NCBI GenBank assembly: GCA_031316235.1
Contig: JALDRA010000001.1
Span: 1,620,001-1,652,000 of the forward strand
Length of the DNA stretch: 32,000 bases
From: Candidatus Scalindua sp.
GTDB lineage: Bacteria; Planctomycetota; Brocadiia; Brocadiales; Scalinduaceae
Direction: 5' to 3'
Shown: positions 396 through 23,983 of the stretch, in pieces
How positions within the stretch are numbered: position 1 is the stretch's first letter
Layout: each line of letters begins with the position of its first letter
The notes under the pieces: model-generated
Seen by the model: the letters and a program-made list of their open reading frames with translations, nothing else
Databases searched by the model: none
Told to the model about the DNA's origin: nothing
Program-made: the position numbers and the translations under genes

Positions 396-1397
396 GTGAA
401 GAGTGTTATTATTGGTGCTGGAATCGCCGGAATAACAGCAGCCAAAACCATCAAAGAGATAGACAAAGATGCTGAAGTGGTTGTTATAGGAGATGAGATG
501 TTTCTCCCATACAAGCGCTATTTATTGACCGAACTGCTGTGCGGCTTATCAGCTCAGGATGATTTACTATTCCTGCCTCTGGAATTATTAAACAAACTGG
601 ATATCAAACTGCGCATTGGAGAAACTGTCAAAGCCATCGAACCGTCGAAAAAGTTAATCACACTTCACCACAATGAAACCATGCACTACGATAAACTCCT
701 CATTGCCACCGGGTGCATACCGAGCCTGGGACTCACATTACGTCCCTATAAGAATTATATCCAGAACTATTACTCTCTGAATGATATCCTTGTGTTGAAA
801 AAAAGAGTGCCGGAAATTCAAAAATGTATTGTTTTCGGGAAAGGCGTAAGTTGCTTAGACCTGATTAGCGGCTTGTACAATCTTGGAAAACAGATTATTT
901 ATATTACGAAGGGAAAACGTGCTCATTTTGGTTTAAAGGAATCTGAGTTTAAGGACACATTGCATGATTTTCTTGAAGAGAAGGGTATAGACATAATAAC
1001 AGAGGATAGAATTGTATCAATTGATACGTCAAAGCACGGTTACCGGGCCGACACATTAAGGCAAAAGAAAATCACCGCTGATATTATCTTTGGGTGGGAT
1101 CATTATAACCCCAATATTTCATGTGTCGAAAATACATCGATTGAAAAAAGGCTAGGGATCCTCGTAAACGCTCAATTGGAAACATCTGAGAAAGATATCT
1201 ATGCAGCGGGAAATTGTATGGAGATCTACAACCCGTTTTTAAAAAAATACTGGTTCAATTTTGGTTTACCAAATGCTTTGGAACAGGGAAGAGTTGCCGG
1301 AAAAAACATGCTGGGGCAAGAAGAAGAGTATAAAATCCATGAAACCATTACCTTCAATCTGATGGGAAAATCACTAAAGGCAAGGTGGTGGAGATGA
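396..1397 (+). CDS. FAD/NAD(P)-dependent pyridine nucleotide-disulfide oxidoreductase family protein
   Basis: GTG start preceded by AGGAG. N-terminal dinucleotide-binding motif VIIGAGIAGITAA and a second Rossmann-like stretch IVFGKGVSCLD. C-terminal AAGNC-type FAD motif. Confidence 0.8.
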   Translation: MKSVIIGAGIAGITAAKTIKEIDKDAEVVVIGDEMFLPYKRYLLTELLCGLSAQDDLLFLPLELLNKLDIKLRIGETVKAIEPSKKLITLHHNETMHYDKLLIATGCIPSLGLTLRPYKNYIQNYYSLNDILVLKKRVPEIQKCIVFGKGVSCLDLISGLYNLGKQIIYITKGKRAHFGLKESEFKDTLHDFLEEKGIDIITEDRIVSIDTSKHGYRADTLRQKKITADIIFGWDHYNPNISCVENTSIEKRLGILVNAQLETSEKDIYAAGNCMEIYNPFLKKYWFNFGLPNALEQGRVAGKNMLGQEEEYKIHETITFNLMGKSLKARWWR

Positions 1398-4699: not shown

Positions 4700-5764
4700 A
4701 TGAATATTGCAGTGATTGGTGCATCTGGGTCTATCGGAAGCGAGCTGGCACGGCAAATTATAGCCACCCGCCTGCTGGAACCTGGCGAACGCCTGCAGTT
4801 GATTGGGAGGGAAGGCAGGCCGAGCTCCCAGATACTGTACGGGCTCTTTAACGACCTCAAGGATGCATATGATGAGATATGTCCGACTCTGGAAGTAATA
4901 CTCAATACAAAAGATATTTCAGCCGACATCGTTATTATGGCTGCCGGCACAACCGCTGCTGTAACCCTTCCTCCAGAGAGTCTCTCCAGAGACAGGTTGG
5001 CCAGGAAAAATATACCGATCTTTAAATACTATGCATCTGCCCTGGCGCAGCATGGGCATGGCAGCGAAATTATAATTTGTGTCTCTAATCCCAACGAACT
5101 GAATGTGGAGATTTTTGCAAGACACCTCGATCGCAAACGGATAATTGGCATGGGTGCGTATCTGGACTCCTTACGATTTAGAAAGGAAATTGCTAAAGAA
5201 CTTGGTTTACATCGACAGAAAATACATGGTTTTATGGTCGGAGAACATGGTTGCAACATGGTACCCCTCTGGAGCAGCGTCCATATTTATGGCCTTCAAA
5301 AAGATGCCGTAAAAGCGGCAATAGATAAAATACGCAAGGGCCGGGCTACGATTAACTTTCAGGATGATATTGCAGAGGCCAGAGAGCAGATTAATATATT
5401 AATTCAAGAAGGTAAAATCCGTCATGCATACGAACTTGCGGATCAGTATCCACCGGATATGAGAACGGTGTTGAATCCGGACATTACACACTTCAGCGGC
5501 TCTAAAACAATAACAGGCACGGTTAATGCAACACTTGAGCTGGTGAATACTATCACCATGGGCCACGATGCACTTATTTCGGGACAGATCAGGCTGGAAG
5601 GTGAGTTTTATGGTGTATATGGAACGATTGGCGTTCCCTTTGTGATAGGCAATTGCGGAGTAGAAAAAGTGCTTGAAGTCTCTCTTGAAAAAGATGAAAA
5701 AGAGCTGTTCATTAAAAACGCAAAAAATATTAATAAGAAAATCTGTCACTGGTTAGGTGCTTAG
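4700..5764 (+). CDS. Lactate/malate dehydrogenase family protein
   Basis: N-terminal NIAVIGASGSIGSELA Rossmann motif, VSNPNE, and the catalytic-loop-like MVGEHGCNMVPLWS. At 354 aa it is longer than typical Mdh/Ldh. Confidence 0.75.
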   Translation: MNIAVIGASGSIGSELARQIIATRLLEPGERLQLIGREGRPSSQILYGLFNDLKDAYDEICPTLEVILNTKDISADIVIMAAGTTAAVTLPPESLSRDRLARKNIPIFKYYASALAQHGHGSEIIICVSNPNELNVEIFARHLDRKRIIGMGAYLDSLRFRKEIAKELGLHRQKIHGFMVGEHGCNMVPLWSSVHIYGLQKDAVKAAIDKIRKGRATINFQDDIAEAREQINILIQEGKIRHAYELADQYPPDMRTVLNPDITHFSGSKTITGTVNATLELVNTITMGHDALISGQIRLEGEFYGVYGTIGVPFVIGNCGVEKVLEVSLEKDEKELFIKNAKNINKKICHWLGA

Positions 5765-5857
5765 AGTACCAAAGCTGCCACCATGTTGCCGTTGTTTTAT
5801 AAGTTGTTAAATACCTTCTGTCTAAACTGATAGTTTCAGATAAAATTACTGATGCTT

Positions 5858-5935
5858 ACGCAGAGCCGCAAAGTTCGCTAAGAAAAAATATGGTCCAAAA
5901 GCTAAATCCCCTTTGCGTTCTTTGCGCCTTAGCGT
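5858..5935. repeat. REP-like inverted pair (arms 5858-5882 and 5910-5935)
   Basis: ACGCAGAGCCGCAAAGTTCGCTAAG faces the reverse complement of a related 26-mer. The same family recurs at 7254-7382. Confidence 0.5.
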
Positions 5936-6086
5936 GAGGAAAAATAAGTTCTCCTTCTCTATATTGTATTATTCCATAACAACGTTACCAACTACTGTGT
6001 GTTACCAATCTTATTTTTCACCGTTATCCTTTGTGTCTTTGTGTGTTACATTTAAATTAGGACAATTAACGAAAGAGAGGTCAAAA

Positions 6087-6842
6087 ATGTTTCACTATTA
6101 CTTTAAAAGAGTTGTGACCGGAGCAGCAACAATTGGTTTCACCCTGTTTTTCGGTCTGATGATCATGCTCCAAACTGCTGCCGCATCAGAAAAAGAGGAC
6201 TGCGGTGTTGACAGTGTCAGCCAATTGAAATTTGCAGATCCCGTAAAGGACATTCATCTATATCTCAACGCCTTTCACACCGCGAAGGAAAATCCAGAAT
6301 TTGAGATAGAGGCCCATCACTACTGTTCGATGCGGAATCTCGACGTCCAGGGAGAAAGCCTTCATCAATGTGCGGTGTATGACTCCAAGGAAGCACCTGC
6401 CAGGCTCATCGGGATAGAGTATATCGTCAGCAATGAGACCTATCAGAAGCTCCCCTCCGAAGAGAAGAGATATTGGCATCCTCATGCGTATGAGGTAATA
6501 TCGGGCCAGCTCATTGCTCCCGATCTGCCCGATATGGGTAACGAGGCGCTTGGAGGATATATTACAAGCTGGGGGAAGACATTTCACACCTGGCCGGACC
6601 CTAAAACCAGTATACCAATGGGAGAACCTATACTGATGTGGTCTGCCGGTGCGGATGGACAGATCAGCAGGGAGATGATTGATAAACGCGATAAGAGTTT
6701 CGGTATCTCTTCCGATGAGCTCCGTGAGCAAAGAAAGAGTTACGGTTATCAGGTCCCAACCGTTGAGGTGCCGCATTCTGTTGATGAAATCGGCCGGCAA
6801 TGGACAAGTAACGGACCAGACGAGCCCAAACAGTTAAAATAA
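6087..6842 (+). CDS. DUF1264 / OBAP-like protein with N-terminal signal/TM segment
   Basis: ATG at 6087 preceded by AGAGAGG. Hydrophobic N-terminus. Motifs as I recall them for DUF1264: HHYC, QCAVYDS, ARLIGIEYIVS, YWHPHAYEVISGQL. The upstream extension of the track ORF (5913-6086) runs through a REP-like repeat. Confidence 0.55.
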   Translation: MFHYYFKRVVTGAATIGFTLFFGLMIMLQTAAASEKEDCGVDSVSQLKFADPVKDIHLYLNAFHTAKENPEFEIEAHHYCSMRNLDVQGESLHQCAVYDSKEAPARLIGIEYIVSNETYQKLPSEEKRYWHPHAYEVISGQLIAPDLPDMGNEALGGYITSWGKTFHTWPDPKTSIPMGEPILMWSAGADGQISREMIDKRDKSFGISSDELREQRKSYGYQVPTVEVPHSVDEIGRQWTSNGPDEPKQLK

Positions 6843-7094: not shown

Positions 7095-7253
7095 ACATTG
7101 GAATTGCAAATACTGCAAGGCAAAAGAAAACTTACCCTTTCACTATCTTTCACCAAATATTTCAATAGTTTTTTATGGATGCATTTTTCAGCGTGTAGCA
7201 GCGCAGCAATCTTAATTCGATTTAGGAGTTCCATTTTAATTAGTTTTTTTCTT

Positions 7254-7382
7254 AACGCAGAGGTCGCGGAGGACGCAGAGTAAAGATAGGTATTCCTATT
7301 TTGCCCGACCGACTCAGCCGTTCGGACGGGAACTCCAGCAACAAAATTTTGTTTTTCTCTGCGATCTCTGCGCCTCTGCGTT
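7254..7382. repeat. REP-like inverted pair (arms 7254-7280 and 7357-7382)
   Basis: AACGCAGAGGTCGCGGAGGACGCAGAG faces the reverse complement CTCTGCGATCTCTGCGCCTCTGCGTT. Same family as 5858-5935. Confidence 0.5.
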
Positions 7383-7536
7383 AAGGCATCTTAGTCTAAA
7401 ATTATCCGTTTAAGCACCATGAACACAGCTACTTATAAAACGACTGCAACATGTTAGTAACTTTGTCACTCTAAGCACCTATACTAAAACCGATCTGGTT
7501 TTCGGTTTTACCGGAAACCAGATCTTGGTGAAGGTA

Positions 7537-7591
7537 TACTCGCTCAATTTTATCTCGGATTTTATCCGAAAACCATTGTAAGATGAGTATA
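7537..7591 (-). repeat. About 50-nt structured repeat, copy A (inverted relative to copy B at 17998-18047)
   Basis: On the minus strand: TATACTCAT..TTTCGGATAAAATCCGAGATAAAATTGAGCGAGTA. It is near-identical to copy B. Confidence 0.7.
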
Positions 7592-7614
7592 TAATGTATA
7601 TTCAGATAGTCGTC

Positions 7615-7860
7615 TTACTCATTATGAGCAGGAATCCATGTCTTCTCTTCGTATTCCTGCCAGTGACCAGAGGGTACAACTCTATTTTCATAATGTCCCT
7701 CGATCCTTCGGTCACCCTCATAACGTTCCGCAACCCACACCCTCTCTTTCTCTGAAGCATCAACCCACATTCTCTTCTTCACATACTCATAATGGCCTTC
7801 AACATAGTTTCCCCCCTGCCCAGATCTGGATTGTCTCTCCATCTGAAGCTGTCTGTCCAT
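7615..7860 (-). CDS. GHYE/W-rich small protein, or the frameshifted C-terminal part of the upstream glycine-zipper lipoprotein
   Basis: 81-aa ORF with repeated GHYE..VW motifs. It overlaps the 3' end of ORF 7799-8110 in another frame. Confidence 0.5.
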   Translation of the reverse strand: MDRQLQMERQSRSGQGGNYVEGHYEYVKKRMWVDASEKERVWVAERYEGDRRIEGHYENRVVPSGHWQEYEEKTWIPAHNE

Positions 7861-8110
7861 TTGTGCATATTCTCTCTTCCCTCTTTTTGTCTAAATGGTC
7901 TCCAACCAAAGCTCCACCGAGAGCCCCTGCTCCAGCACCAATTGCTGCGCCCATACCGGCATTACCCGTCAAGGCACCTATAATTGCACCGGTAGCCGCT
8001 CCCGCTCCGGTCCCAACTGCTGAGCTTTTTTGAGTTGTTGTTAAACAACCTGTAGTGAGAGTGCTTACTGTCACAACACATATTGTCATAATAATTATTT
8101 TTCTATTCAT
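7799..8110 (-). CDS. Glycine-zipper lipoprotein
   Basis: ATG at 8110 preceded by GGGAGAAAGC. Signal peptide with lipobox LTTGC. Gly/Ala zipper GTGAGAATGAIIGALTGNAGMGAAIGAGAGALGGALVG. Confidence 0.75.
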   Translation of the reverse strand: MNRKIIIMTICVVTVSTLTTGCLTTTQKSSAVGTGAGAATGAIIGALTGNAGMGAAIGAGAGALGGALVGDHLDKKREERICTNGQTASDGETIQIWAGGKLC

Positions 8111-8255
8111 GCTTTCTCCCACCTTAGACGATCTTCGTTCTGAGAAAGTTTCATAAAAAAAAATATTCAAGCAGATTACGTGTATCAACATGTTTCAGCC
8201 AGACTTTGTATAATACGAGCGTAAAGTTATTGTTTTGAGAACCCTAATGATCAAT

Positions 8256-8318
8256 CCGCTAACGTTTATGCTAAGTGGCGCGAGTTTACGAGCGTCCACT
8301 TGAGCTGCTTGTTAGGGC
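8256..8318 (-). other. attC-like recombination site D (63 bp), overlaps the 3' end of the TIR-SIR2 gene
   Basis: Minus strand: GCCCTAAC-aagca-GCTcAAGTGGaCGC-loop-GCGCCACTTAGC-ataaac-GTTAGCGG. Spacers are 5 and 6 nt, and there are two unpaired bases in the 5' arm. Confidence 0.75.
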
Positions 8319-9647
8319 TATTTTCTGCAAAATACCAGGTATTTCCCGATAGTCTTCAACCCATATCATGCTAAGCCCAAGTTCATTTGCATCTTGCTCT
8401 TCAAGGAGCAGTGCTAGCTGATCCATTGGGTCACGCGTTTTGGAATTGGATGGTACTTTCTTAATGAAATAGTGATTCAACGACTTGTCGGGATTTTTTC
8501 TATTGGCAACATCGAGCAAGCGCCTAAGATTCGGATCAGTTAAGCTCAGGCCAATAAACAGACATGTATTCTGACTCAACTTGTTTAACTGGATAAGGTT
8601 AGACCAGCTAAATGGCTCAATAAATTGGCTATGATAAGCATCTTCACTAAATACTACCTCCATATTTGGAGGGATTCGGCCTTTACGTGGAAGAAAACCG
8701 TGTACGTGATATACCGGTAATTCACTTGGTGAGTTACGCACCCCCTCACCATAAACCGCTTTATGGTTTATGTTTTGCTTCTCTAAATTTTCTTCTAACA
8801 AAGCATCAAAGTTAAAAGTAATTATTGAATCAAGTGGTTTACCATCTCTTTGAGGACGGGAAAGATCAACTATGGAATCTAAAATCTCGCAGGACTTTGG
8901 ATCGGATGCATATAGAGCGTCTCTGAGCTCTTTTAGGAAGTCCTTTCCAAGGTTGGTTTTTAGATACTTGCCCACCACAAGAGATGAAGGAGAATACCTT
9001 GAATGGAATTTATTGGCATCTAAATCCGCCATTGGTAAGGCGTGATCTGATGACATCCTCGACATCATTTCACTTAACAGCCTAAGTAATAAATCATTCC
9101 ACGATGGTACACCTGCACCCACGGACACACCTGCACCGCATACCAATGTCAAGCGGCCTCCATGTAGTGCCTTAGCGAGGTCTATTATCTTATTTTCTCT
9201 AACATCTTCCTTTTGTTCCTTTTGTATTTCCTCATCTGAGTGATCTGACTCCTCTCGACCCTCTTTTGTTATTGTGGCAACAAGGTTACGGATACCAAAT
9301 TCTATATCCGACGAAATATCAGCATAAACATAATTAGATAGATAACTTGGGATCGGTCCGTTATCTATTAAAACAGGGATTATTCTCGTTGTTTGCTTAG
9401 ATAGCTCATTAAATGCTATCGCAGAAAACTCATGCATCACCCATTTTGATTTTGATGAGTTTCGGCTAACTATCAGAATCACTATATCAGCTGACTTAAC
9501 GCCTTCTGATATTTTCTTTAGAAGGTTGTCACCAGCTTTTAAGCTCCACGAGTCATACCATACCTCATGGTTTGCTTCCTGTAGCTTATTTGCTAATAGC
9601 GAAGCGTATTTTTTATCTTGGCTGCTATAGCTGATGAATATCTTCAT
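8286..9647 (-). CDS. TIR-SIR2 fusion protein (putative NAD-consuming defence effector)
   Basis: The N-terminus MKIFISYSSQDKKYA...SKWVMHEF is TIR-like and has a conserved Glu. The C-terminal half is SIR2_2-like: LVCGAGVSVGAGVPSWNDLL, ITFNFDALLE, VYHVHGFL, LFIGLSLTDPNLRRLL. Confidence 0.8.
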   Translation of the reverse strand: MKIFISYSSQDKKYASLLANKLQEANHEVWYDSWSLKAGDNLLKKISEGVKSADIVILIVSRNSSKSKWVMHEFSAIAFNELSKQTTRIIPVLIDNGPIPSYLSNYVYADISSDIEFGIRNLVATITKEGREESDHSDEEIQKEQKEDVRENKIIDLAKALHGGRLTLVCGAGVSVGAGVPSWNDLLLRLLSEMMSRMSSDHALPMADLDANKFHSRYSPSSLVVGKYLKTNLGKDFLKELRDALYASDPKSCEILDSIVDLSRPQRDGKPLDSIITFNFDALLEENLEKQNINHKAVYGEGVRNSPSELPVYHVHGFLPRKGRIPPNMEVVFSEDAYHSQFIEPFSWSNLIQLNKLSQNTCLFIGLSLTDPNLRRLLDVANRKNPDKSLNHYFIKKVPSNSKTRDPMDQLALLLEEQDANELGLSMIWVEDYREIPGILQKIALTSSSSGRS

Positions 9648-9668
9648 TGTTTTTGATCCGTGTGTATT

Positions 9669-9742
9669 GCCCTAACGTTGCGCTCTGCGGAAATTTTGGA
9701 GCGCAGCGGAAAAATTGTCCGACAGCAGCGCCTTGTTATAAC
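9669..9742 (-). other. attC-like recombination site C (74 bp)
   Basis: Minus strand: GTTATAAC-aag-GCGCTgCTGtCGGA-loop-TCCGCAGAGCGC-aac-GTTAGGGC. It starts 3 nt after the upstream stop and has two unpaired bases (g, t) in the 5' arm. Confidence 0.75.
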
Positions 9743-9744
9743 TT

Positions 9745-10482
9745 TTAACCAACAATCTTCTTTTGCCTCTCGTACTCTGAATTTAGCTGTAAAAAAAGAG
9801 CATTAATATGATTGAATAAAATGCTATTTATTTCTCTGAACTCAGACTTCTTTTCAGATAAAACTTTTTTGAGACGCTCCGTTCGTATATGCTTGTATGC
9901 TTTCACTTGATCCTCGTCATCAATGTGCTCGAAATTATTAAGATAAAACAACTCAATTTTATTTAAGTCTTTATCAATTAACGAATGCCGATGAATAAGT
10001 GTATGTCTGATTTGCTCGTGCTCACTTAGATATTTGCTAATGGCTTTAACTGCCTTAAGAATTTCTGGGCGGTGTTGAACCTTATAGTTGCTGACTATTA
10101 CGCCATGATTTACATTTGCTTCATTAATGCACAGATGAAATACAGCATTTACCAACTGAAGAACTCGATCGTGTACAGATTTTATACGAATTAAGTAGTT
10201 TTCAATATTGTAAATTAGATGATCTGCCCGTGAAGCTTCTTTTTTTGAGTAATCAAAGTTCGATAGCAGCTCAATAGCTAAATCGAGTTGCCTACACCAA
10301 GAAATTGTATTAACTAGATAGAAACCTACTTTCTGGACGTAGTATTGATATTCAGATAATTCGATATCTTCAGGAAGCTCCGTAGCTAGTTTATCAACTT
10401 CGATGTCAGAAAATGCTACCTCTCCGTCTTTAAGAACAGATACCAAGAAAGAATTTTCATCTAATTCCGTAAATTTACTCAT
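9745..10482 (-). CDS. Hypothetical alpha-helical protein with a HEPN-like Rx4H motif
   Basis: ATG at 10482 preceded by AGGAG. EQIRHTLIHRHS gives R-x4-H at residues about 160-165. I tentatively recall similarity to the Cthe_2314-type HEPN family (YNIENYLIRIKSVHDRVLQLVN). Confidence 0.45.
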   Translation of the reverse strand: MSKFTELDENSFLVSVLKDGEVAFSDIEVDKLATELPEDIELSEYQYYVQKVGFYLVNTISWCRQLDLAIELLSNFDYSKKEASRADHLIYNIENYLIRIKSVHDRVLQLVNAVFHLCINEANVNHGVIVSNYKVQHRPEILKAVKAISKYLSEHEQIRHTLIHRHSLIDKDLNKIELFYLNNFEHIDDEDQVKAYKHIRTERLKKVLSEKKSEFREINSILFNHINALFLQLNSEYERQKKIVG

Positions 10483-10493
10483 CACACTCCTGA

Positions 10494-10619
10494 GTTATAA
10501 CGTTTTGCATAAGCAACCACCACCTGTGCGTATGCTTGCAAGAGAAACTTAAAGCGGTAGCCTTGATAAATATTAAACCGCATAGTTATTGGTGGTTGAC
10601 TTAATGTGATTGTTATGTG
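10494..10619 (-). other. attC-like recombination site B (126 bp)
   Basis: Minus strand: CACATAAC-aatca-CATtAAGtCAACCACCA-long loop-TGGTGGTTGCTTATG-caaaac-GTTATAAC. Spacers are 5 and 6 nt, and there are two unpaired T in the 5' arm. Confidence 0.7.
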
Positions 10620-11358
10620 ATTTTTAATATCCTTTAGAATATTATATAATATTTCTTGTTTCTCATATTGCATTCGAAAAAAAATAAATCATCCCCCAAG
10701 AAGAACATTGGCATATGTGGTAACGAAAAGACCGAGACAGAACCAACCGAGAAGCGACTGAATAGTAGCAAGCATCTGGGTAGCTGGACGGCAGGGATCA
10801 ATATCACCAAAGCCAAGCGTACTAAAAGTCGTTGCAGAAAAATAGATACATTGAAAAAGTGCGGAATCAAATGGTTTATCACATTCTTTTTTAATTGTAA
10901 TAATACATTTCTTAAGAAAGAGAAAAAACATTGGCACACTATAAATTTTATGTTTGTTTTGAACTTTAACTTCACAAGAGGAAAAAAATTTACTACTTAA
11001 CTTAAAAACGCTAATAATGAATTGGCTTGGATAAACTTCAACAAATTTTCTAGCAGGATCACGGAGCAACTGAAGGCCTGTGGGATTTAGAAGATAATAA
11101 AGCAGAGCAAAAACGATGATAATTACACCTCCCGTTGGAAATATTCGCAAAGGTCGAACACCAAATCCGCATATCAGCCAGTTTAGGTTGTTGAAAATCC
11201 ATATAAAGGGACTTACCGGTAGTTTCTCCCAAGCTGGATAGTTTTTTCTCTCCCAATTTTTATACTCGTAAAAAGCTTCTAAAGCAATATCGGGTCTACC
11301 AGCATTTTTGATACTATCCATTAGAGGATAGTAAGTTCTTTTTCGATCAATATCCCTA

Positions 11359-12579
11359 GTGTCACGTCAAGCTAGAATTGTCGTATATAATAGATTATAA
11401 TATCTTCATAATTAAATTTTTTTCGGGAGATTTAGATTATGAAGAAATACATAGTAACTCTTGATTGCGATGAACGTAACAGGCTTGTTGCTTTAACGTC
11501 TAAAGGGATGCATAGATCCCAAAAGATACTCAATGCATTACTATTATTAGCTTGCGACCAGGGTGAGTATCAGGGCAAACGTTCGACCAACGTTGAAATT
11601 GCCCGTGTTCTTAAAATAAGCATGAAGAAAATTGACCGGGTAAAGAAAAGATTTGTTGAAGAAGGTTTTGAAGTTGCGCTTAATGGACGCAAAGGCAATC
11701 GAGTATATGAAAAGAAGACAGATGGTGACTTTGAAGCCCACCTGGTAGCGTTAAGTTGTAGCGAGCCGCCAGAAGGTTTTGCAAGATGGTCTCTGCGATT
11801 ATTAGCAGACAAGGTAGTAGAACTTGAATATACTGACAAAATTTCCCACGAAACAATACGCCGTATATTAAAAAAAACGAAATTAAGCCCTGGCAACGAA
11901 AAGGTTGGGTAATACCGCCAAAAGAAAACGGCAGTTTTGTCGCTAACATGGAAATGGTGCTGGATGTATACAAACGTCCATATGACGCTAAGTATCCAGT
12001 AATATGTATGGACGAGTCACCAAAGCAACTTATATCAGAGACAAAGATGCCAATTTCTGCTTCACCAGGGCAACCGGCTAAGTATGACTATGAATATAAG
12101 CGTTGTGGAGTGTGTAATATTTTTCTGGCCTTTGAACCATTGGCCGGGAAACGTATAGTAAAAATAACAGAAAGAAGAACTAAACAAGATTGGTCCTATT
12201 TTCTGGAAGACGTTGTTAATACATATGGTCATGCGAACAAAATAACATTAGTAATGGACAACTTGAATACTCATGATGCTGGATCGTTGTATGAAACGTT
12301 TGTGCCGGATAAAGCAAAGGAAATTTTAGATAAATTTGAGTTTGTCTACACCCCAAAGCATGGTAGCTGGTTAAATATGGCAGAAATCGAGTTGAATGTA
12401 CTTGCTGGACAGTGTTTAAACAGGCGGATTGATAATATTACAAAGATAAAAAAAGAAGTACAGTCATGGCAGAAATTTAGAAACAATAAGAAATCAAAGG
12501 CTAACTGGCAGTTTACTACGATTGATGCCAGGATAAGATTATCTAAACTTTACCCGACACTTGATGATTGACGTGACAC
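11359..12579 (+). mobile_element. IS630-family insertion sequence (1221 bp)
   Basis: 12-bp perfect terminal inverted repeats: GTGTCACGTCAA at 11359-11370 and TTGACGTGACAC at 12568-12579. TA is duplicated at 11357-58 and 12580-81 within a CTAG target. Confidence 0.9.
11439..12571 (+). CDS. IS630-family DDE transposase, two frames joined by a -1 shift at an A8 run
   Basis: ORF1 is the HTH part and ORF2 the DDE part. Shifting -1 at 11870-11877 reads LKKNEIKPWQRKGWVIPPKENGSFVANMEMVLDVYKRPYD, which is the canonical IS630 junction. Confidence 0.85.
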
Positions 12580-13518
12580 TAGATAAAAAATTTACATTTT
12601 TTTTGTCATCGAAAGAAAGGAGACCTGCAAGTTGGGACCAATCAGTAAAAGAAAGTCTTGAGTGAGATGACCAACCTAGCTGAATTGTACCATTGAACTT
12701 AGTTTTATGAAAAGCCCCAAATTCTCTAAAACTTGAATTTGGGAAAAAAACAGAACCTTCAAATTCAGTAAAAGAAAAATATGTATCCCCACGAAATTTA
12801 GTTCCATCAAAAACTGCATCACTTTTAAACTTAGCTCTCATAAACTGAGCATCTTCATCAAAATGTGATTTAGTAAAGTCTACTTTCTGATAAAATTCTG
12901 TACTCCAGAAATCAGCCTGCTTACCAAACTTTACCGCAAAGAATTTTATAACTTTACTTTTTCCCTTGTTAGTATTAGCGAATTTAGCATTACTAAAGCC
13001 AGAGCCTTCTTTAAAATTTGCATAAGAGAAGTCAGTTTTTCCATAAAAAATTGATTTATGAAAATCAGCCATTTTTTCAAAGTTTGTTGCAAAGAAATTT
13101 GTTGAATTCTTGAAAATAGAATCGCGAAAAGATATTTCTTTTTTTATATGTAAACCATGAAAACCAACATCACTATCAAAAACGGATGAGACTATTGATA
13201 TTTCCCTTTTAATGTCAAATAATTCTCCTTCATTTCCTGGAATCGATAATTTTCCTATTACCCACAACTTTGACACTTTTAATGGTGTATTGGTATCTTT
13301 TATAATTTCTTTTCTAAGATTTTCTGCTGTTACCCAATAATATCCATCCTTTTTTAGTTCACCTGAAATGTAAATGTTGCAACCAGGGGAAGCGTCTTTG
13401 TATGCCATCACAGTTCCTGGCAATCCCACTATTAGGTGAATTATCAAGATACTAAGCCAAAATACTAATATCACAGAATGGTTGGTAAGATTAGTAATTA
13501 TTTTTTTCTTATAAGTTA

Positions 13519-13607
13519 ACATAACGCCTCGCATCACCGGGCGCAAAAAGCAGAGCGAGGAACGAGCGGCGCTTTTTGCGATCCGAGTGCATGCGATTGT
13601 TAGGGGC
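13519..13607 (-). other. attC-like recombination site A (89 bp)
   Basis: Minus strand: GCCCCTAAC-aat-CGCATgCACtCGGatCGCAAAAAGC-loop-GCTTTTTGCGcCCGGTGATGCG-aggc-GTTATGT. It starts 2 nt after the upstream stop. The ATG of the next cassette lies inside R'. Confidence 0.75.
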
Positions 13608-13608
13608 T

Positions 13609-14304
13609 TTAGCCTTGCTCACGCCCCGACCGTTCACGAAGTGTTTTTACTGCGTAGGCACCGCCAGCGAGAAACACCCCCGCGCCAGCTAAGATGCCGC
13701 CTATAATTTCACCTACGTTGAATTCAATATTTACGGTTGGCTTTTCCGCCCACCCAAGATAAACGATGTAACCAACTATCACGCTGATTAGCCCAAAGAT
13801 TGCAACGTAGAGCCAGTTAACAGCGGATTTCTTCTTGCCGGTGGTCGATTTTATTCTTCGCCTGACGCTAGACAACTTCTTGAGAAGTTGCCATTTTCTA
13901 GCCCAAGCTCGATTTTGCTTTTGAATGGATTTTGTTTCTGGATCAATAGATGAGGCAGTGAGCTCATCAATTGAAGATTTCAGCATTGGGTAGAGAACCG
14001 CATTCTTTTTAGAATTGAGATAGCCTCTCTCTTTATCAGTGACCTGAATAGGTCGAACAATACCATCTTTCGATGTCCGAAAAACAAGGTGCCTATGAAG
14101 CACCATGCGCGTGAGGCCAAAGCTGTCGTGCTCTTGATGTTTGAAATTAAAGTTATCAACGATTTCCTTCGCGTTGACGCCGTCATATTCTGAGGCTGCC
14201 ATTAGTTGGCAATACAATGAAATGCGCGCCTGAGGTGACAAAGCGGTCGCATAGGATGCGATCCACTTCCTATATTGTTCAAGTTTTTCTTCGTATTCAG
14301 GCAC
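13609..14304 (-). CDS. Hypothetical membrane-anchored protein (231 aa)
   Basis: GTG start with GAGGAACAGCA upstream. A soluble N-terminal domain of about 110 aa is possibly winged-helix-like. It is followed by a Lys/Arg-rich linker and two C-terminal hydrophobic helices (WLYVAIFGLISVIVGYIVYL, IIGGILAGAGVFLAGGAYAV). Confidence 0.6.
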   Translation of the reverse strand: MPEYEEKLEQYRKWIASYATALSPQARISLYCQLMAASEYDGVNAKEIVDNFNFKHQEHDSFGLTRMVLHRHLVFRTSKDGIVRPIQVTDKERGYLNSKKNAVLYPMLKSSIDELTASSIDPETKSIQKQNRAWARKWQLLKKLSSVRRRIKSTTGKKKSAVNWLYVAIFGLISVIVGYIVYLGWAEKPTVNIEFNVGEIIGGILAGAGVFLAGGAYAVKTLRERSGREQG

Positions 14305-14340
14305 TGCTGTTCCTCGCCCCTAACAGTTAAATATACAACT

Positions 14341-14389
14341 ACTATGATATCAGAAATATACGGCAGCCGTATATTTCTGATATCATAGT
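14341..14389. repeat. 49-bp perfect palindrome
   Basis: ACTATGATATCAGAAATATACGGC-A-GCCGTATATTTCTGATATCATAGT. The arms are 24 bp with no mismatch. Confidence 0.9.
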
Positions 14390-14689
14390 CATCGTTTATA
14401 TTATTTTAAAGCAATTTTCAAGTGAAATTTCAAAGTTTTTAGAAACAACTTGACTTTCAACTGCTTTCACCTAAAGAAAAAAACAACAAGCCGTTGATCT
14501 ATTATGGATGATATGGAGGTGTGTTATGGAAAACAAATTGTAGTAACGCAAGCATTTTTCATATGTGACAGGTATTTCTGCTCTTACTACATAAATGTTT
14601 TGATTATACCCGTCACAAATTTTAATAATTGAATTAAAGCACTTTTTTTATACTATGAGGGAACTTTCACTCCTTTTCCCTGTCTAACT

Positions 14690-17997: not shown

Positions 17998-18047
17998 TAT
18001 ACTCATACTGGATTTCGGATAAAATCCGAGATAAATTTGAGCGAGTA
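17998..18047 (+). repeat. About 50-nt structured repeat, copy B
   Basis: TATACTCAT..TTTCGGATAAAATCCGAGATAAATTTGAGCGAGTA. Its partner is at 7537-7591 in inverted orientation. Confidence 0.7.
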
Positions 18048-18200: not shown

Positions 18201-19067
18201 TTCATAGATTATCGTGATCAGGATGAAATTGAACACACCGTTGAAGAACTGATTTCTCAACGAGTATATGGGATAGCATTAGGATACGAAGATTTAAATG
18301 ATCATGACAGTTTGCGGGCTGATCGTTTGCGGGCAATATTATGTGGGAAGGAAGACCCAAGTGGCCAGGATCGACGCTGTGCAAGAGACAAGGGGAAAGC
18401 ATTAGCAGGTTAGAGTACTTTGAACAGACTGGAATTAACGCCTCCTGATGCTACGAGGAAAGACCGTTATAAAAAGATAGTGTATTGTAGAGAAAAGGTT
18501 GAAGAATATTTTGTAGACATTTTTTTGCGTTCCAGAGAAGAGATACCAGATCAAATAATACTGGACCTGGATGCGACAGACAATCCCCTTTATGGTAACC
18601 AGGAAAATCGTTTCTTTCATGGATATTATGACAGTTACTGTTATCTGCCCTTGTACATTTTTTGTGGAAGCCAGTTGCTGTGTGCAAAGCTGAGGCCTTC
18701 GGATATTGATTGTAGTGAAGGTTCTAAAGAAGAAGTAGAAAGAATTGTCAAACATATCCGTAAACAGTGGCCAGATGTGAGAATTATTCTACGGGGTGAT
18801 TCTGGCTTTGCGAGAGAAGAATTGATGAAGTGGTGTGAGGCGAACGGTGTTGACTATCTATTTGGTTTAGCAAAGAATTCGCGCCTCATAAAGATGATCG
18901 AAGGAGAACAGGAAGAAGCCCGGAAAGAATATGATCGGACAGAGCAGGCGTCTCGTGTGTATAAAGACTTTGTATACAGGACCCTGAAAAGTTGGTCAAG
19001 AGAAAGACGGGTTGTTGGCAAGGCAGAATATTTGAGGAGGGGTCCCAAAAAGTTTTCAGGATCTTAA
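18201..19067 (+). pseudogene. IS1380-family transposase pseudogene
   Basis: QRVYGIALGYEDLNDHDSLRAD, ILDLDATDNPLYGNQ and FFHGYYDSYCYLPLYIF match the IS1380 family as I recall it. An in-frame TAG sits where the family has AGKSTLNRLE. The N-terminus is degraded (stops upstream of 18201) and the C-terminal half is missing. Confidence 0.75.
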
Positions 19068-23071: not shown

Positions 23072-23983
23072 ATGAAAAAAGGACATTCGCACTTCTTTGT
23101 TTTTGTCGTAATCATGGCAATAGGTTCTTTAATGGGATACACGTCTTCAGTAAGCGCTGAGTTTTCAGCAATTGAAGCAGCAAAGTCTGAGCATCTTGAG
23201 AGTGATGCCATAAAAGCTGGATCAGCAGCAGCCGAAGCAGCAAAATCCGGGAATCTCAAGGCTGATGCCATAAAAGCCGGATCGTCGGCAATTGAAGCAG
23301 TAAAATCCGGGAATATCGAGGCTGACTCCATAAAAGACGGATCAGCAGCAATTGAAGCAGCAAAGTCCGGGAATCTCAAGGTTGATGCCATAAAAGACGG
23401 ATCGTCAGCAATTGAAGCAGTAAAGTCTGAGCATTCCAAGACTGACGCCATAAAAGACGGATCAGCAGCAGCCGAAGCGGCAAAATCCGGGAATCTCAAG
23501 GCTGACGCCATAAAAGCTGAAGCTTCAGGGACTGAAACAGCAAAAGTTGAGCACTCCAGGGCTGATGCCACAAAAGCTGGCTCTTTTTCAGCAGGATTTC
23601 CCTATGGATATCAAGGCTGGACAAATACTTTTGCCAAGGTAGTCCAGGCAAAAGGGCCATTTTACGGTTTTCAACGAGTACTTGTCAGTTTGCAGGCACT
23701 TGACGCTTACACAAACAACAGCAGCGGATATGAAAACGGAGATGTATTGGTTCTTGAATTCAACGAAATAGAGAATGAAAATGACGGTATGGTCAAAGGA
23801 GAAGTTAACTGGATAGCTGTTATGGTGAAAGATTCATCAGCAACAGAAACAGGAGGATGGAGATATGCTGCTTATGATGGAAAAACGAAAATGCCAAAAG
23901 AAGAAGTTGATCCTGTTACCGGTTGTTATAATTGCCATATGGCAGTCAAAAACAGGGATTATGTATTTTCTGAATTAAAATAA
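23072..23983 (+). CDS. Secreted cytochrome P460-family protein with an N-terminal tandem-repeat region
   Basis: Signal peptide. C-terminal WIAVMVKDSSATETGGWRYAAY...CYNCH...RDYVF with the CxxCH haem motif typical of the P460/c'-beta family. RBS GGGGAGGGA. Confidence 0.7.
   Translation: MKKGHSHFFVFVVIMAIGSLMGYTSSVSAEFSAIEAAKSEHLESDAIKAGSAAAEAAKSGNLKADAIKAGSSAIEAVKSGNIEADSIKDGSAAIEAAKSGNLKVDAIKDGSSAIEAVKSEHSKTDAIKDGSAAAEAAKSGNLKADAIKAEASGTETAKVEHSRADATKAGSFSAGFPYGYQGWTNTFAKVVQAKGPFYGFQRVLVSLQALDAYTNNSSGYENGDVLVLEFNEIENENDGMVKGEVNWIAVMVKDSSATETGGWRYAAYDGKTKMPKEEVDPVTGCYNCHMAVKNRDYVFSELK
23156..23584 (+). repeat. In-frame 60-bp (20-aa) tandem repeat, about 7 units, with alternating subtypes
   Basis: Units are AIKAGSAAAEAAKSGNLKAD and AIKAGSSAIEAVKSGNIEAD and so on, with boundaries every 60 bp from 23207. 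The A-type/B-type alternation gives a 120-bp super-period. Confidence 0.9.

Follow-up and report, generated by a model that had tools for sequence, protein, structure and literature searches.

A TIR-SIR2 fusion gene carried as a single-ORF integron cassette in Candidatus Scalindua, a candidate Thoeris-like NAD-consuming protein

We examined a 32,000-nt stretch of DNA from Candidatus Scalindua sp. (GCA_031316235.1, contig JALDRA010000001.1, positions 1,620,001-1,652,000, forward strand), referred to below as the window, which represents 32 kb of a 4.15-Mb contig. Its minus strand carries an array of integron cassettes, one of which holds a single gene joining a TIR domain to a SIR2 domain. The features, in window coordinates, are as follows:

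8286..9647, minus strand: TIR-SIR2 ORF, stop codon included, 453 aa, ATG start
9267..9647, minus strand: TIR domain, residues 1-127 (TIR_2 match), with the Glu73 codon at 9429-9431
9174..9266, minus strand: acidic linker, residues 128-158 (AF2 secondary structure and pLDDT)
8313..9173, minus strand: ThsA-like SIR2 (SIR2_2) module, residues 159-445 (SIR2_2 match, ThsA/DSR2 alignment, Foldseek)
8811-8813, minus strand: Asn279 codon
8700-8702, minus strand: His316 codon
8263..9675, minus strand: TIR-SIR2 integron cassette (G/TT to G/TT), 1413 bp, one ORF, 25-nt 5' leader
8257..8317, minus strand: the cassette's own attC, 61 nt, with R'' CCCTAAC, paired L''/L' and R' GTTAGCG
9670..9741, minus strand: attC of the upstream HEPN cassette, 72 nt, with R' GTTAGGG at 9670-9676
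7250..13605, minus strand: cassette array (CALIN-type) with five attC sites
13519-13605, 10495-10618, 9670-9741, 8257-8317 and 7250-7386, minus strand: the attC sites of the array
11356-12582: IS630 element inserted in the array, with inverted repeats and DDE_3
994-1045, minus strand: stray attC-like site outside the array, scoring at least 17

A first-pass annotation of this DNA had proposed an ORF at 8286-9647 encoding a TIR-SIR2 polypeptide, and the reading frame, minus-strand orientation, ATG start and length are borne out; an identical protein (P0001) has a record under the title 'TIR domain-containing protein [Candidatus Scalindua sp.]'. The motifs quoted at the time are all found in the protein (MKIFISYSSQD, SKWVMHEF, LVCGAGVSVGAGVPSWNDLL, ITFNFD, VYHVHG and LFIGLSLTDPNLRRLL), and the codon of E73 lies where it had been placed. 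The Pfam search that the annotation called for recovers both domains in the one polypeptide above the curated cut-offs, TIR_2 on residues 3-114 (E=1.5e-28, 100.1 bits, cut-off 28) and SIR2_2 on residues 274-400 (E=8.8e-18, 65.2 bits, cut-off 24.5). Moreover, the catalytic positions it had singled out, E73, N279 and H316, all match experimentally defined residues in alignments and hardly vary, being retained in 213, 225 and 221 of 225 family members, respectively.

The best sequence matches for residues 3-92 are TIR NADases of the AbTIR/PdTIR/BtpA type (E about 1e-10). An alignment to these three proteins puts E73 on the W..YE Glu of AbTIR and PdTIR, with the preceding Trp aligned as well; the domain combines a TIR fold with the conserved catalytic Glu of an enzymatic TIR. 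Proteins of this type are TIR-only or coiled-coil-TIR and, unlike TIR-SIR2, none is fused to SIR2. The acidic linker suspected between the two domains is present at about residues 128-158; the AF2 model, which gives no oligomeric state, has low confidence at residues 132-134 and forms one long helix over residues 135-162 that runs into the SIR2 module. This helix belongs to the SIR2 chassis, since the match to sister proteins begins at about residue 145.

In the SIR2 half, N279 aligns with ThsA N112, and H316 with ThsA H152 and DSR2 H171, giving the module the catalytic Asn and His of a ThsA effector. The best Foldseek match for the protein is the activated BcThsA filament 8bto (E=5.7e-10), followed by other ThsA structures, DSR2 and KomC, and the PADLOC ThsA1 model matches the SIR2 part at 5.3e-24. 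Spanning ThsA residues ~20-282, this half covers the entire SIR2 module and ends where SLOG starts. Family-wide, conservation is far higher here than in the TIR half, and residues 223-267 and 334-383 include many invariant positions that are not catalytic. The earlier reading that no recognisable sensor domain is present holds, in that TIR (1-127), linker (128-158) and SIR2 fold (159-445) fill the protein; Pfam and PADLOC models detect no SLOG or other ligand-binding domain in a chain that ends at ThsA residue ~282.

The annotation had also described a single-gene cassette of about 1.4 kb, which is real: the G/TT-to-G/TT unit measures 1413 bp between two attC sites, its bounds (8263-9675) being derived from the two R' cores. 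The attC at 8257-8317 takes in the stop codon of the ORF and the ~10 codons before it, a layout shared by three relatives (L001, L016, L025), in which R'' also lies within the ORF. At the other end, R' of the HEPN-cassette attC supplies the TTAGGG with which the TIR-SIR2 cassette begins, and this 5' end is complementary to the cassette's own R'' (CCCTAA). Of 21 family cassettes, 17 show exact complementarity of this kind, with nine different cores, against 2% in permutations. Furthermore, an attC sits at the stop codon in 23 of 90 homologue loci and in 1 of 270 control windows, the former count being a lower bound from a detector that uses a home-made core-plus-stem score and not the IntegronFinder covariance model; its specificity was checked by shuffles, internal control windows and a covariation test. 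Six sites score at least 17 on the minus strand of the window, compared with 0.6 +/- 0.7 per 32 kb in Markov shuffles. The TIR-SIR2 gene and its attC make up a genuine single-ORF integron cassette.

The ORFs of the array are co-oriented, with one attC in each spacer between them. None of the window's annotated ORFs (90 aa or longer) encodes an integron integrase, so the array is CALIN-type or its intI lies outside the window. A promoter and terminator scan around TIR-SIR2 returns sites no more often than shuffles do, with none just upstream on the gene's strand, and an Rfam scan of the whole window finds no RNA family. With a leader of only 25 nt, no promoter-like site upstream and no integrase or Pc in the window, the cassette may be silent in its array. 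The product of the neighbouring cassette is a HEPN protein that bears an Rx4H motif. This neighbour was considered as a functional partner and rejected, since an attC separates the two genes and makes them independent cassettes. Integron cassettes are documented stores of defence systems, according to a review and a preprint. The integron-cassette defence genes of recent work cited there (Darracq 2025, Kieffer 2025, Getz 2025) are likewise compact, promoterless, single-ORF attC cassettes in chromosomal arrays; the TIR-SIR2 family is not listed in the accessible papers.

Relatives of TIR-SIR2 comprise 628 representatives of 50%-identity clusters at E<=1e-30, a count that includes sister proteins sharing only the SIR2 module. 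Members occur in at least seven phyla, with 55-79% conservation across phyla and frequent horizontal spread, a pattern that fits a defence gene. A search of 72,556 plasmids gives no full TIR-SIR2, only partial SIR2-only matches, which means that the gene is not a clinical mobile-integron cassette. The phage collection searched likewise yields partial SIR2-only matches and no full TIR-SIR2, and IMG/VR yields 2 loci among 2.9 million contigs; taken with the plasmid result, this indicates that it is not a typical phage or plasmid gene. Whether the architecture had already been catalogued was left undecided by the first-pass annotation, and the question can now be narrowed: neither PADLOC-DB v2 nor NCBIfam r20 has a full-length model for it, and none of the four Thoeris types defined by January 2026 has this architecture. 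The literature searched contains no description of the fusion (subscription-only papers or supplements may mention it), the sole full-text trace being a passing figure-legend mention of SIR2_2 proteins carrying TIR. The family is widespread, highly conserved and apparently unstudied.

The gene is solitary in its own clade. TIR-SIR2 is the only TIR-matching ORF in the window, and its clade (the window's copy, L001, L025/L024, L013, L015 and L016) has no partner gene even on long contigs; the Vibrio and Desulfosediminicola copies stand alone among housekeeping genes, and most of the ~100 sampled contexts lack a second TIR gene. An all-vs-all BLAST of neighbours in 13 loci returned no conserved partner and seemed conclusive, until look-ups of ~61% homologues exposed a DUF1883-TIR gene, which a wider count confines mainly to one clade. 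In this sister clade (about 60% identity), DUF1883-TIR directly adjoins TIR-SIR2, and both gene orders occur; 6 of the 80 metagenomic loci have the pair. The two genes lie within one attC pair with no attC at their ~30-nt junction, L028 3638-5762 being one such two-gene cassette. The description of the cassette as self-contained is accurate for the gene's own clade, but the sister clade packs DUF1883-TIR into the same cassette, so that some dependence on a second TIR protein is conceivable. The TIR of this partner scores 147-154 bits on the PADLOC ThsB model, and a distant family member (L012) has a DUF1883-TIR gene 2 kb away. The PADLOC candidate PDC-S66 (a 282-position profile) matches TIR-SIR2 at positions 151-240 only, in the TIR part and not over its full length; the partner matches positions ~137-281 far better (233-246 bits). 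That a ThsB-like TIR is co-packaged hints at a receiving role for the fused TIR in place of a sensing one. Additionally, some homologues adjoin defence-type genes, such as SLATT with ThsB_TIR, DUF4062-HEAT and ScoMcrA_N.

The same SIR2 chassis also occurs with other N-termini: a D..ExK nuclease-like domain, in 52 of 67, as well as LRR-Roc-COR and Mrr_N. The nuclease-SIR2 sister family (470-520 aa) shares ~40% identity with TIR-SIR2 residues 145-443, linker helix included, has the same invariant SIR2 residues and, like TIR-SIR2, is closest in fold to ThsA and KomC, although the whole-model Foldseek result is dominated by the SIR2 part. In place of TIR, its N-terminus has an alpha-beta-beta-beta-alpha-beta topology. 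PADLOC and Pfam have no model for these proteins beyond SIR2, and searches of PDB profiles and Pfam give no meaningful match for a nuclease fold, so that we describe the N-terminus as PD-(D/E)xK-like from its D..ExK motif and the secondary-structure topology predicted by AF2. The idea that it is a diverged TIR was rejected, its profile scoring 1.2 bits against the query TIR. A constant chassis with varied N-termini points to a constant effector combined with a variable input module. What is new here is the sister-clade cassette with a ThsB-like DUF1883-TIR gene, together with the SIR2 chassis bearing nuclease-like or LRR-Roc-COR N-termini.

Bacterial immunity has two main NAD-cleaving modules, TIR and SIR2, each with relatives in eukaryotic immunity. 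To our knowledge, characterised systems either place the two on different proteins that communicate through a diffusible signal or equip one with an obvious sensor. Type I Thoeris (ThsB TIR plus ThsA SIR2-SLOG) has the same two enzymatic domains, and its ThsA is nearest to the SIR2 half of our protein in sequence and fold, with the N112 and H152 equivalents conserved. However, TIR and SIR2 are separate in Type I Thoeris, whereas here they form one polypeptide, with no separate thsB adjoining it in the window or its clade and one present only in the sister clade. A fusion without SLOG or separate thsB does not require a diffusible-signal step, and such a step may not exist. DSR1 and DSR2 are also single-gene systems whose SIR2_2 NADase is of the N-terminal type and has the conserved Asn and His, but at 1000-1250 aa they include a large C-terminal sensor, whereas TIR-SIR2 has 453 aa with TIR placed N-terminal to SIR2; the Dsr1 models of PADLOC and NCBIfam match it only over profile positions ~12-236, the C-terminal sensor region being absent. 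SPARTA and SPARSA use TIR or SIR2 as NAD-depleting effectors activated by oligomerisation, with the two domains as alternatives where TIR-SIR2 has both together, and no APAZ or PIWI/Argonaute match was found in TIR-SIR2 or its annotated neighbours.

We consider it probable, from domain content and gene context, that TIR-SIR2 is an autonomous Thoeris-like NAD-consuming abortive-infection protein in which TIR is the trigger and SIR2 the effector. The C-terminal ThsA-type SIR2 module would deplete NAD+, and the N-terminal TIR would act as the input, taking the place of ThsA's SLOG ligand sensor. In uninfected cells the protein would be auto-inhibited; an infection cue would then drive TIR-mediated self-association, a step suggested by the need of enzymatic TIRs for TIR-TIR contacts to form the active site, and the assembly would switch on SIR2 through the connecting helix. 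Activation by higher-order assembly, as proposed here, is a property of ThsA, KomBC, Avs5 and FAM118B, and PMC12700824 describes filament-dependent activation for ThsA, Avs5 and FAM118B. The conservation of Glu73 suggests that the TIR may also turn over NAD+, either as a second NADase or as the maker of a locally acting ADPR-type product. That the gene forms a one-ORF cassette, a minimal mobile unit of function, counts in favour of an autonomous protein. Several points count against it: PADLOC and NCBIfam have no full-length model, TIR-SIR2 has no ligand-binding or dedicated sensor domain, fusion in cis gives up the signal logic of known Thoeris, where the TIR product is diffusible and amplifying, the sister clade co-packages a ThsB-like TIR, and the cassette may be silent in its array. 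A much less probable version of the mechanism casts the fused TIR as a protein-protein switch and not chiefly as the maker of a diffusible messenger, with TIR-TIR assembly clustering and activating SIR2. The phage would be detected either by the fused TIR or, where the sister clade is concerned, by the ThsB-like DUF1883-TIR packaged with it, and this detection would nucleate the assembly.

Other readings distribute input and output differently. TIR-SIR2 could be the effector half only, a ThsA analogue fed by a separate ThsB-like TIR protein elsewhere in the genome through heterotypic TIR-TIR assembly or by binding the partner's product, in which case a lone cassette would not be self-sufficient. 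The sister clade lends this some weight, with DUF1883-TIR directly adjoining TIR-SIR2 in both orders, sharing its attC pair and scoring as ThsB, and so does the occurrence of this partner near L012. However, the window's own clade is partnerless, long contigs included, the family has many single-ORF cassettes whose ends match, and most of the ~100 contexts have no second TIR gene, the view of Scalindua being 32 kb of 4.15 Mb; we judge this reading unlikely. We think it just as unlikely that both domains destroy NAD+ in parallel, possibly to different products that hinder NAD+ reconstitution by the phage, with the SIR2 module itself sensing infection, for example through its invariant helical insertion (~199-267) or the 334-350 loop. 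Strong selection on both active sites is consistent with such a dual effector, as are the much higher conservation of the SIR2 half with its invariant non-catalytic residues, the effector-type, nuclease-like N-terminus of the sister family and the interchangeability of TIR, SIR2 and nuclease domains as effectors in short-pAgo systems, as given in reviews. Nevertheless, the LRR-Roc-COR and Mrr_N variants resemble input modules, no known SIR2_2 NADase senses phage via its catalytic domain alone, and ThsA, DSR2, SPARSA and KomBC each use an added domain or partner, as the titles of their structures indicate.

A role outside defence appears very unlikely, whether as a toxin that stabilises the cassette or array, as an interbacterial toxin, or as a regulatory sirtuin or ADP-ribosyltransferase with host proteins as its targets. 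Toxin genes are frequent in cassette arrays, and the adjacent HEPN cassette with its Rx4H motif is in keeping with this, but the TIR-SIR2 cassette contains no antitoxin or immunity gene, secretion signal or toxin-delivery domain. Its SIR2 is of the SIR2_2 immune type, nearest to ThsA, DSR2 and KomC rather than to the canonical deacylase sirtuins, its TIR groups with NAD-cleaving bacterial TIRs, and the conservation and horizontal spread across phyla also fit a role in defence.

The TIR-SIR2 family joins both NAD-cleaving domains with nothing else, and a 1.4-kb integron cassette carries it between phyla. Should it protect against phages, it would be among the most compact NAD-depletion systems known, and would pose the sharp question of how two 'effector' domains alone detect infection and otherwise stay off. 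Were the fused TIR a switch, the protein would be a bacterial counterpart of animal TLR/MyD88-style cooperative TIR assembly joined to a NADase effector, and would represent a new Thoeris-like type without a ligand-binding domain, with solitary and two-gene cassettes as natural 'sensor-fused' and 'sensor-split' versions. The two-gene sister cassette with its ThsB-like gene and the nuclease-SIR2 family offer ready comparisons for separating input from output. Scalindua, an anammox planctomycete, adds an environmental, non-Vibrio example to the idea of defence-gene storage in integron arrays.

Both domains of the TIR-SIR2 protein are supported by profile searches: residues 3-114 match Pfam TIR_2 with 100 bits (E=1.5e-28; threshold 28) and residues 274-400 match SIR2_2 with 65 bits (E=8.8e-18; threshold 24.5), in line with the first-pass annotation, whose quoted motifs all occur in this ORF. 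The features of the gene are as follows.

Features of the TIR-SIR2 gene and its cassette
8286-9647, minus strand: TIR-SIR2 ORF, ATG start, 453 aa
8257-8317: the gene's own attC (cassette recombination site), overlapping the last ~10 codons of the ORF
8263-9675: recombination unit, 1413 bp, with a 25-nt leader

PADLOC-DB v2 matches the protein by single domains only, with ThsA1 (5e-24) for the SIR2 part and PDC-S66, bSEFIR, Aga_TIR and ThsB for the TIR part, and NCBIfam r20 gave nothing more than domain matches below threshold; the identical protein is recorded from a 4.15-Mb contig under the title 'TIR domain-containing protein [Candidatus Scalindua sp.]'. The best solved-structure matches to residues 3-92 are NAD-cleaving bacterial TIRs (7uxr, PdTIR 3h16, AbTIR 7uwg/8g83 and BtpA/TcpB), and alignment to them places E73 (WVMHEF) at the Glu of their W..YE motif. 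The C-terminal half is alignable to ThsA (8wc0, 6lhx, 7uxt, 8bto) and DSR2, N279 falling on BcThsA N112 and H316 on BcThsA H152 and DSR2 H171, so that all three residues proposed as catalytic find their counterparts. The aligned span (ThsA residues ~20 to ~282) is the entire ThsA SIR2 module and stops at the start of the SLOG sensor. An AF2 model from 53 homologues (pTM 0.79, pLDDT 77.6) contains a TIR fold (1-127) that a short, acidic, low-confidence stretch and a long helix (135-162) connect to a SIR2 Rossmann fold, itself interrupted by a helical insertion. In Foldseek the model matches the activated BcThsA filament best (8bto, E=5.7e-10); other ThsA structures, DSR2 and KomC come next. Neither the structure alignments nor the model leave residues for a further domain, which agrees with the earlier reading that no recognisable sensor is present.

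The gene is almost certainly an integron cassette. Sites of the attC type, each built of R'' (NNNTAAC), an imperfectly paired L''/L' stem and R' (GTTAGNG), occupy the 97-nt spacer upstream of it and span its stop codon. Between 7250 and 13605 lie five attC sites, one per spacer, every spacer separating co-oriented minus-strand ORFs; at a score of at least 17, this strand holds six sites, including a stray one at 994-1045, against 0.6 ± 0.7 per 32 kb in Markov shuffles. Because the gene's own attC overlaps the end of the ORF, the C-terminal '...IALTSSSSGRS' is partly attC-encoded, and R'' likewise lies inside the ORF in the closest relatives, from Desulforhopalus (78% identity), MAG contig RRYU01018034 (77%) and Thiodiazotropha (70%). 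An attC begins no more than a few bases from the stop codon in 23 of the 90 homologue loci with sufficient flank, compared with 1 of 270 intragenic control windows. The first bases of an integrated cassette come from its own R' and must therefore complement its own R''; this complementarity, the decisive test for cassette status, is exact in 17 of 21 family cassettes with nine different cores (2% in permutations). The mobilisable unit put at about 1.4 kb is thus confirmed, as 1413 bp between attC sites. Cassette-borne members are dispersed across the family in a rough NJ tree, and the copies of Vibrio sp. and Desulfosediminicola flagellatus are solitary, inserted between housekeeping genes, with decayed attC. 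No integrase is found in the 32-kb window, and the array is therefore CALIN-type (an attC array without integrase) or its intI lies outside the window. In Paenibacillus macquariensis, a Firmicute, two similar attC-like repeats of 147 and 163 nt (ATATAAC...GTTAGSY; 5089-5235 and 7348-7510 of homologue locus L007) flank a TIR-SIR2 homologue; this phylum is not usually credited with integrons.

Other features of the array and its surroundings were also recorded. The product of the cassette at 9745-10485(-) is HEPN_Cthe2314-like, 246 aa long, and contains the Rx4H motif RHTLIH. This cassette has its own attC (9670-9741) and may act alone, as an RNase-type toxin or in defence; a site nearly identical to this attC lies 3' of a 58%-identity TIR-SIR2 homologue in loci L039 and L070. 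The cassette at 10689-11321(-), whose attC is long at 124 nt (10495-10618), codes for an Ion_trans_2 (K+-channel-like) membrane protein of 210 aa. An IS630-family element (11356-12582; 28-nt inverted repeats) is inserted in the array, its HTH orfA (11439-11912) and DDE_3 orfB (11948-12571) probably joined by frameshifting; a pentapeptide-repeat ORF (12539-13546) has lost its 3' end to the insertion. Upstream of the array's first ORF (13609-14304) stands a palindrome (14331-14399; 34+34 nt, 88% complementary, arms 1 nt apart, then a GTTAGGGG core) that could be an unusual attC or an attI-like array boundary. A DUF1264 gene (5913-6842, + strand) and the array's last attC (7250-7386) lie between the two arms of an 87-nt inverted repeat (5754-5840 / 7395-7481; 75% complementary), possibly a MITE or the remnant of a transposon. 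A 46-nt inverted pair (7537-7582 / 18002-18047; 89%) spans ~10.4 kb, covering the whole array and an ECF sigma/anti-sigma pair; a DDE_Tnp_1_4 transposase gene, degenerate and frameshifted (18420-19067), has the second copy ~250 nt upstream. The pair is probably what remains of IS ends and may record an earlier inversion or a composite element. Elsewhere, ORF 23072-23983 contains six tandem 60-nt (20-aa) repeats (23105-23583) and a C-terminal Cytochrome_P460 domain.

The family is widespread. A word-indexed search returned at least 1837 matches, of which the best 120 are all 425-485 aa long, carry both domains, are 55-79% identical and are distributed over Planctomycetota, Desulfobacterota, Gamma-, Beta- and Alphaproteobacteria, Bacteroidota, Ignavibacteriales and Chloroflexi; to these, a genome scan added Paenibacillus and Anaeromonas, both Firmicutes. 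Exhaustive HMMER searching of 1.84 billion 50%-identity representatives gave 628 matches at E<=1e-30, a count that takes in sister proteins with the SIR2 module alone in common. Of 225 members aligned over both halves, 213 have E73, all have N279 and 221 have H316; D281, H314, D371, R375 and R376 are invariant. Conservation is markedly stronger in the SIR2 half than in the TIR half. Searches of 72,556 plasmids and 50,697 phage records did not find the full-length gene, and IMG/VR has it on 2 contigs only.

In many representatives, 470-520 aa long, the match is confined to query residues ~145-443. SIR2_2 is present in all 78 examined, with TIR in 6, LRR-Roc-COR in 1 (P0177 or P0240) and the likewise rare Mrr_N in 1; in the rest, the N-terminal ~170-200 aa have no Pfam or PADLOC match, and apart from SIR2 these sister-family variants have no PADLOC or Pfam model. 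One N-terminal family (proteins P0186-P0270) accounts for 52 of 67 unmatched N-termini and has a nearly invariant D..(16)..E-x-K; in an AF2 model of this domain (m83342eabd666, made for P0195; pLDDT 88.4), the core is alpha-beta-beta-beta-alpha-beta, with Asp on strand 2 and ExK on strand 3. From this PD-(D/E)xK pattern we infer a restriction-endonuclease-like domain; profile searches against PDB and Pfam gave no confirmation. Catalytic and many non-catalytic SIR2 residues are identical between this family and TIR-SIR2. A constant SIR2 joined to a variable N-terminus speaks for SIR2 as output and the N-terminal domain as input.

SIR2_2 domains of the ThsA and DSR2 types are NADases that deplete NAD+ once activated, and enzymatic TIRs require TIR-TIR assembly and a catalytic Glu. 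The TIR-SIR2 protein is probably an NAD-consuming defence protein; more tentatively, it might act through a specific assembly mechanism with TIR as input and SIR2 as output. The protein would be auto-inhibited until infection provoked TIR-driven self-association, which would switch on the SIR2 NADase via the linker helix, and the loss of NAD+ would abort infection; as the conserved Glu73 suggests, the TIR would also consume NAD+. Filament formation activates ThsA, Avs5 and FAM118B (PMC12700824), and the top Foldseek matches are helical assemblies of ThsA and KomBC.

A different reading makes the protein an effector half that needs a ThsB-like TIR in trans. Relatives P0033 and P0037 (~61% identity) have a DUF1883-TIR gene (256 aa) as direct neighbour, on the upstream side in one context and on the downstream side in another; among 80 metagenomic loci, 6 carry it immediately upstream of TIR-SIR2, and in one distant Saprospiraceae member it lies 2 kb away. 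The PADLOC ThsB model gives the partner's TIR 147-154 bits.

Loci with the TIR-SIR2 and DUF1883-TIR pair (own coordinates)
L018: 3202-5329
L021: 2198-4384
L028: 3638-5762
also L027, L029, L031, L033 and L048

In L028, L031 and L027 the order is attC, DUF1883-TIR, a ~30-nt junction without attC, TIR-SIR2, attC, with the R' before the pair matching the R'' after TIR-SIR2; the pair is a two-gene cassette. Partner-bearing members cluster in one clade of the rough NJ tree; its sister, the clade of the window gene, has no partner, even on long contigs. All-vs-all comparison of 13 loci found no shared neighbour besides TIR-SIR2, and the window has no second TIR ORF. The claim of self-containment thus stands for the window gene's lineage, but the family also has a Thoeris-like split version, in the sister clade; dependence on a partner in trans appears unlikely. 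The conserved Glu73 would also suit a dual effector with sensing within the SIR2 module, which we consider improbable. A non-defence toxin or regulatory sirtuin is very unlikely for a protein aligning with ThsA and DSR2.

The protein would resemble type I Thoeris in its manner of working, but two defining features of that system, SLOG and a separate thsB, are absent; without the C-terminal sensor it is not a DSR, and without APAZ and pAgo it is neither SPARTA nor SPARSA. Every Thoeris type described up to January 2026 keeps the TIR on a protein of its own and has a ThsA domain that binds ligand, and in reviews TIR and SIR2 appear only as separate proteins or alternative effectors. PADLOC-DB v2 and NCBIfam r20 hold no TIR-SIR2 model, and the open-access text of 7.7 million PMC papers and 0.34 million bioRxiv preprints yielded no description of the family, the sole trace being a figure legend that mentions a TIR on some SIR2_2 proteins. 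The interest of the gene lies mainly in its being a compact, very widespread, cassette-borne candidate for defence, and its family poses a clear mechanistic puzzle with natural comparators built in.
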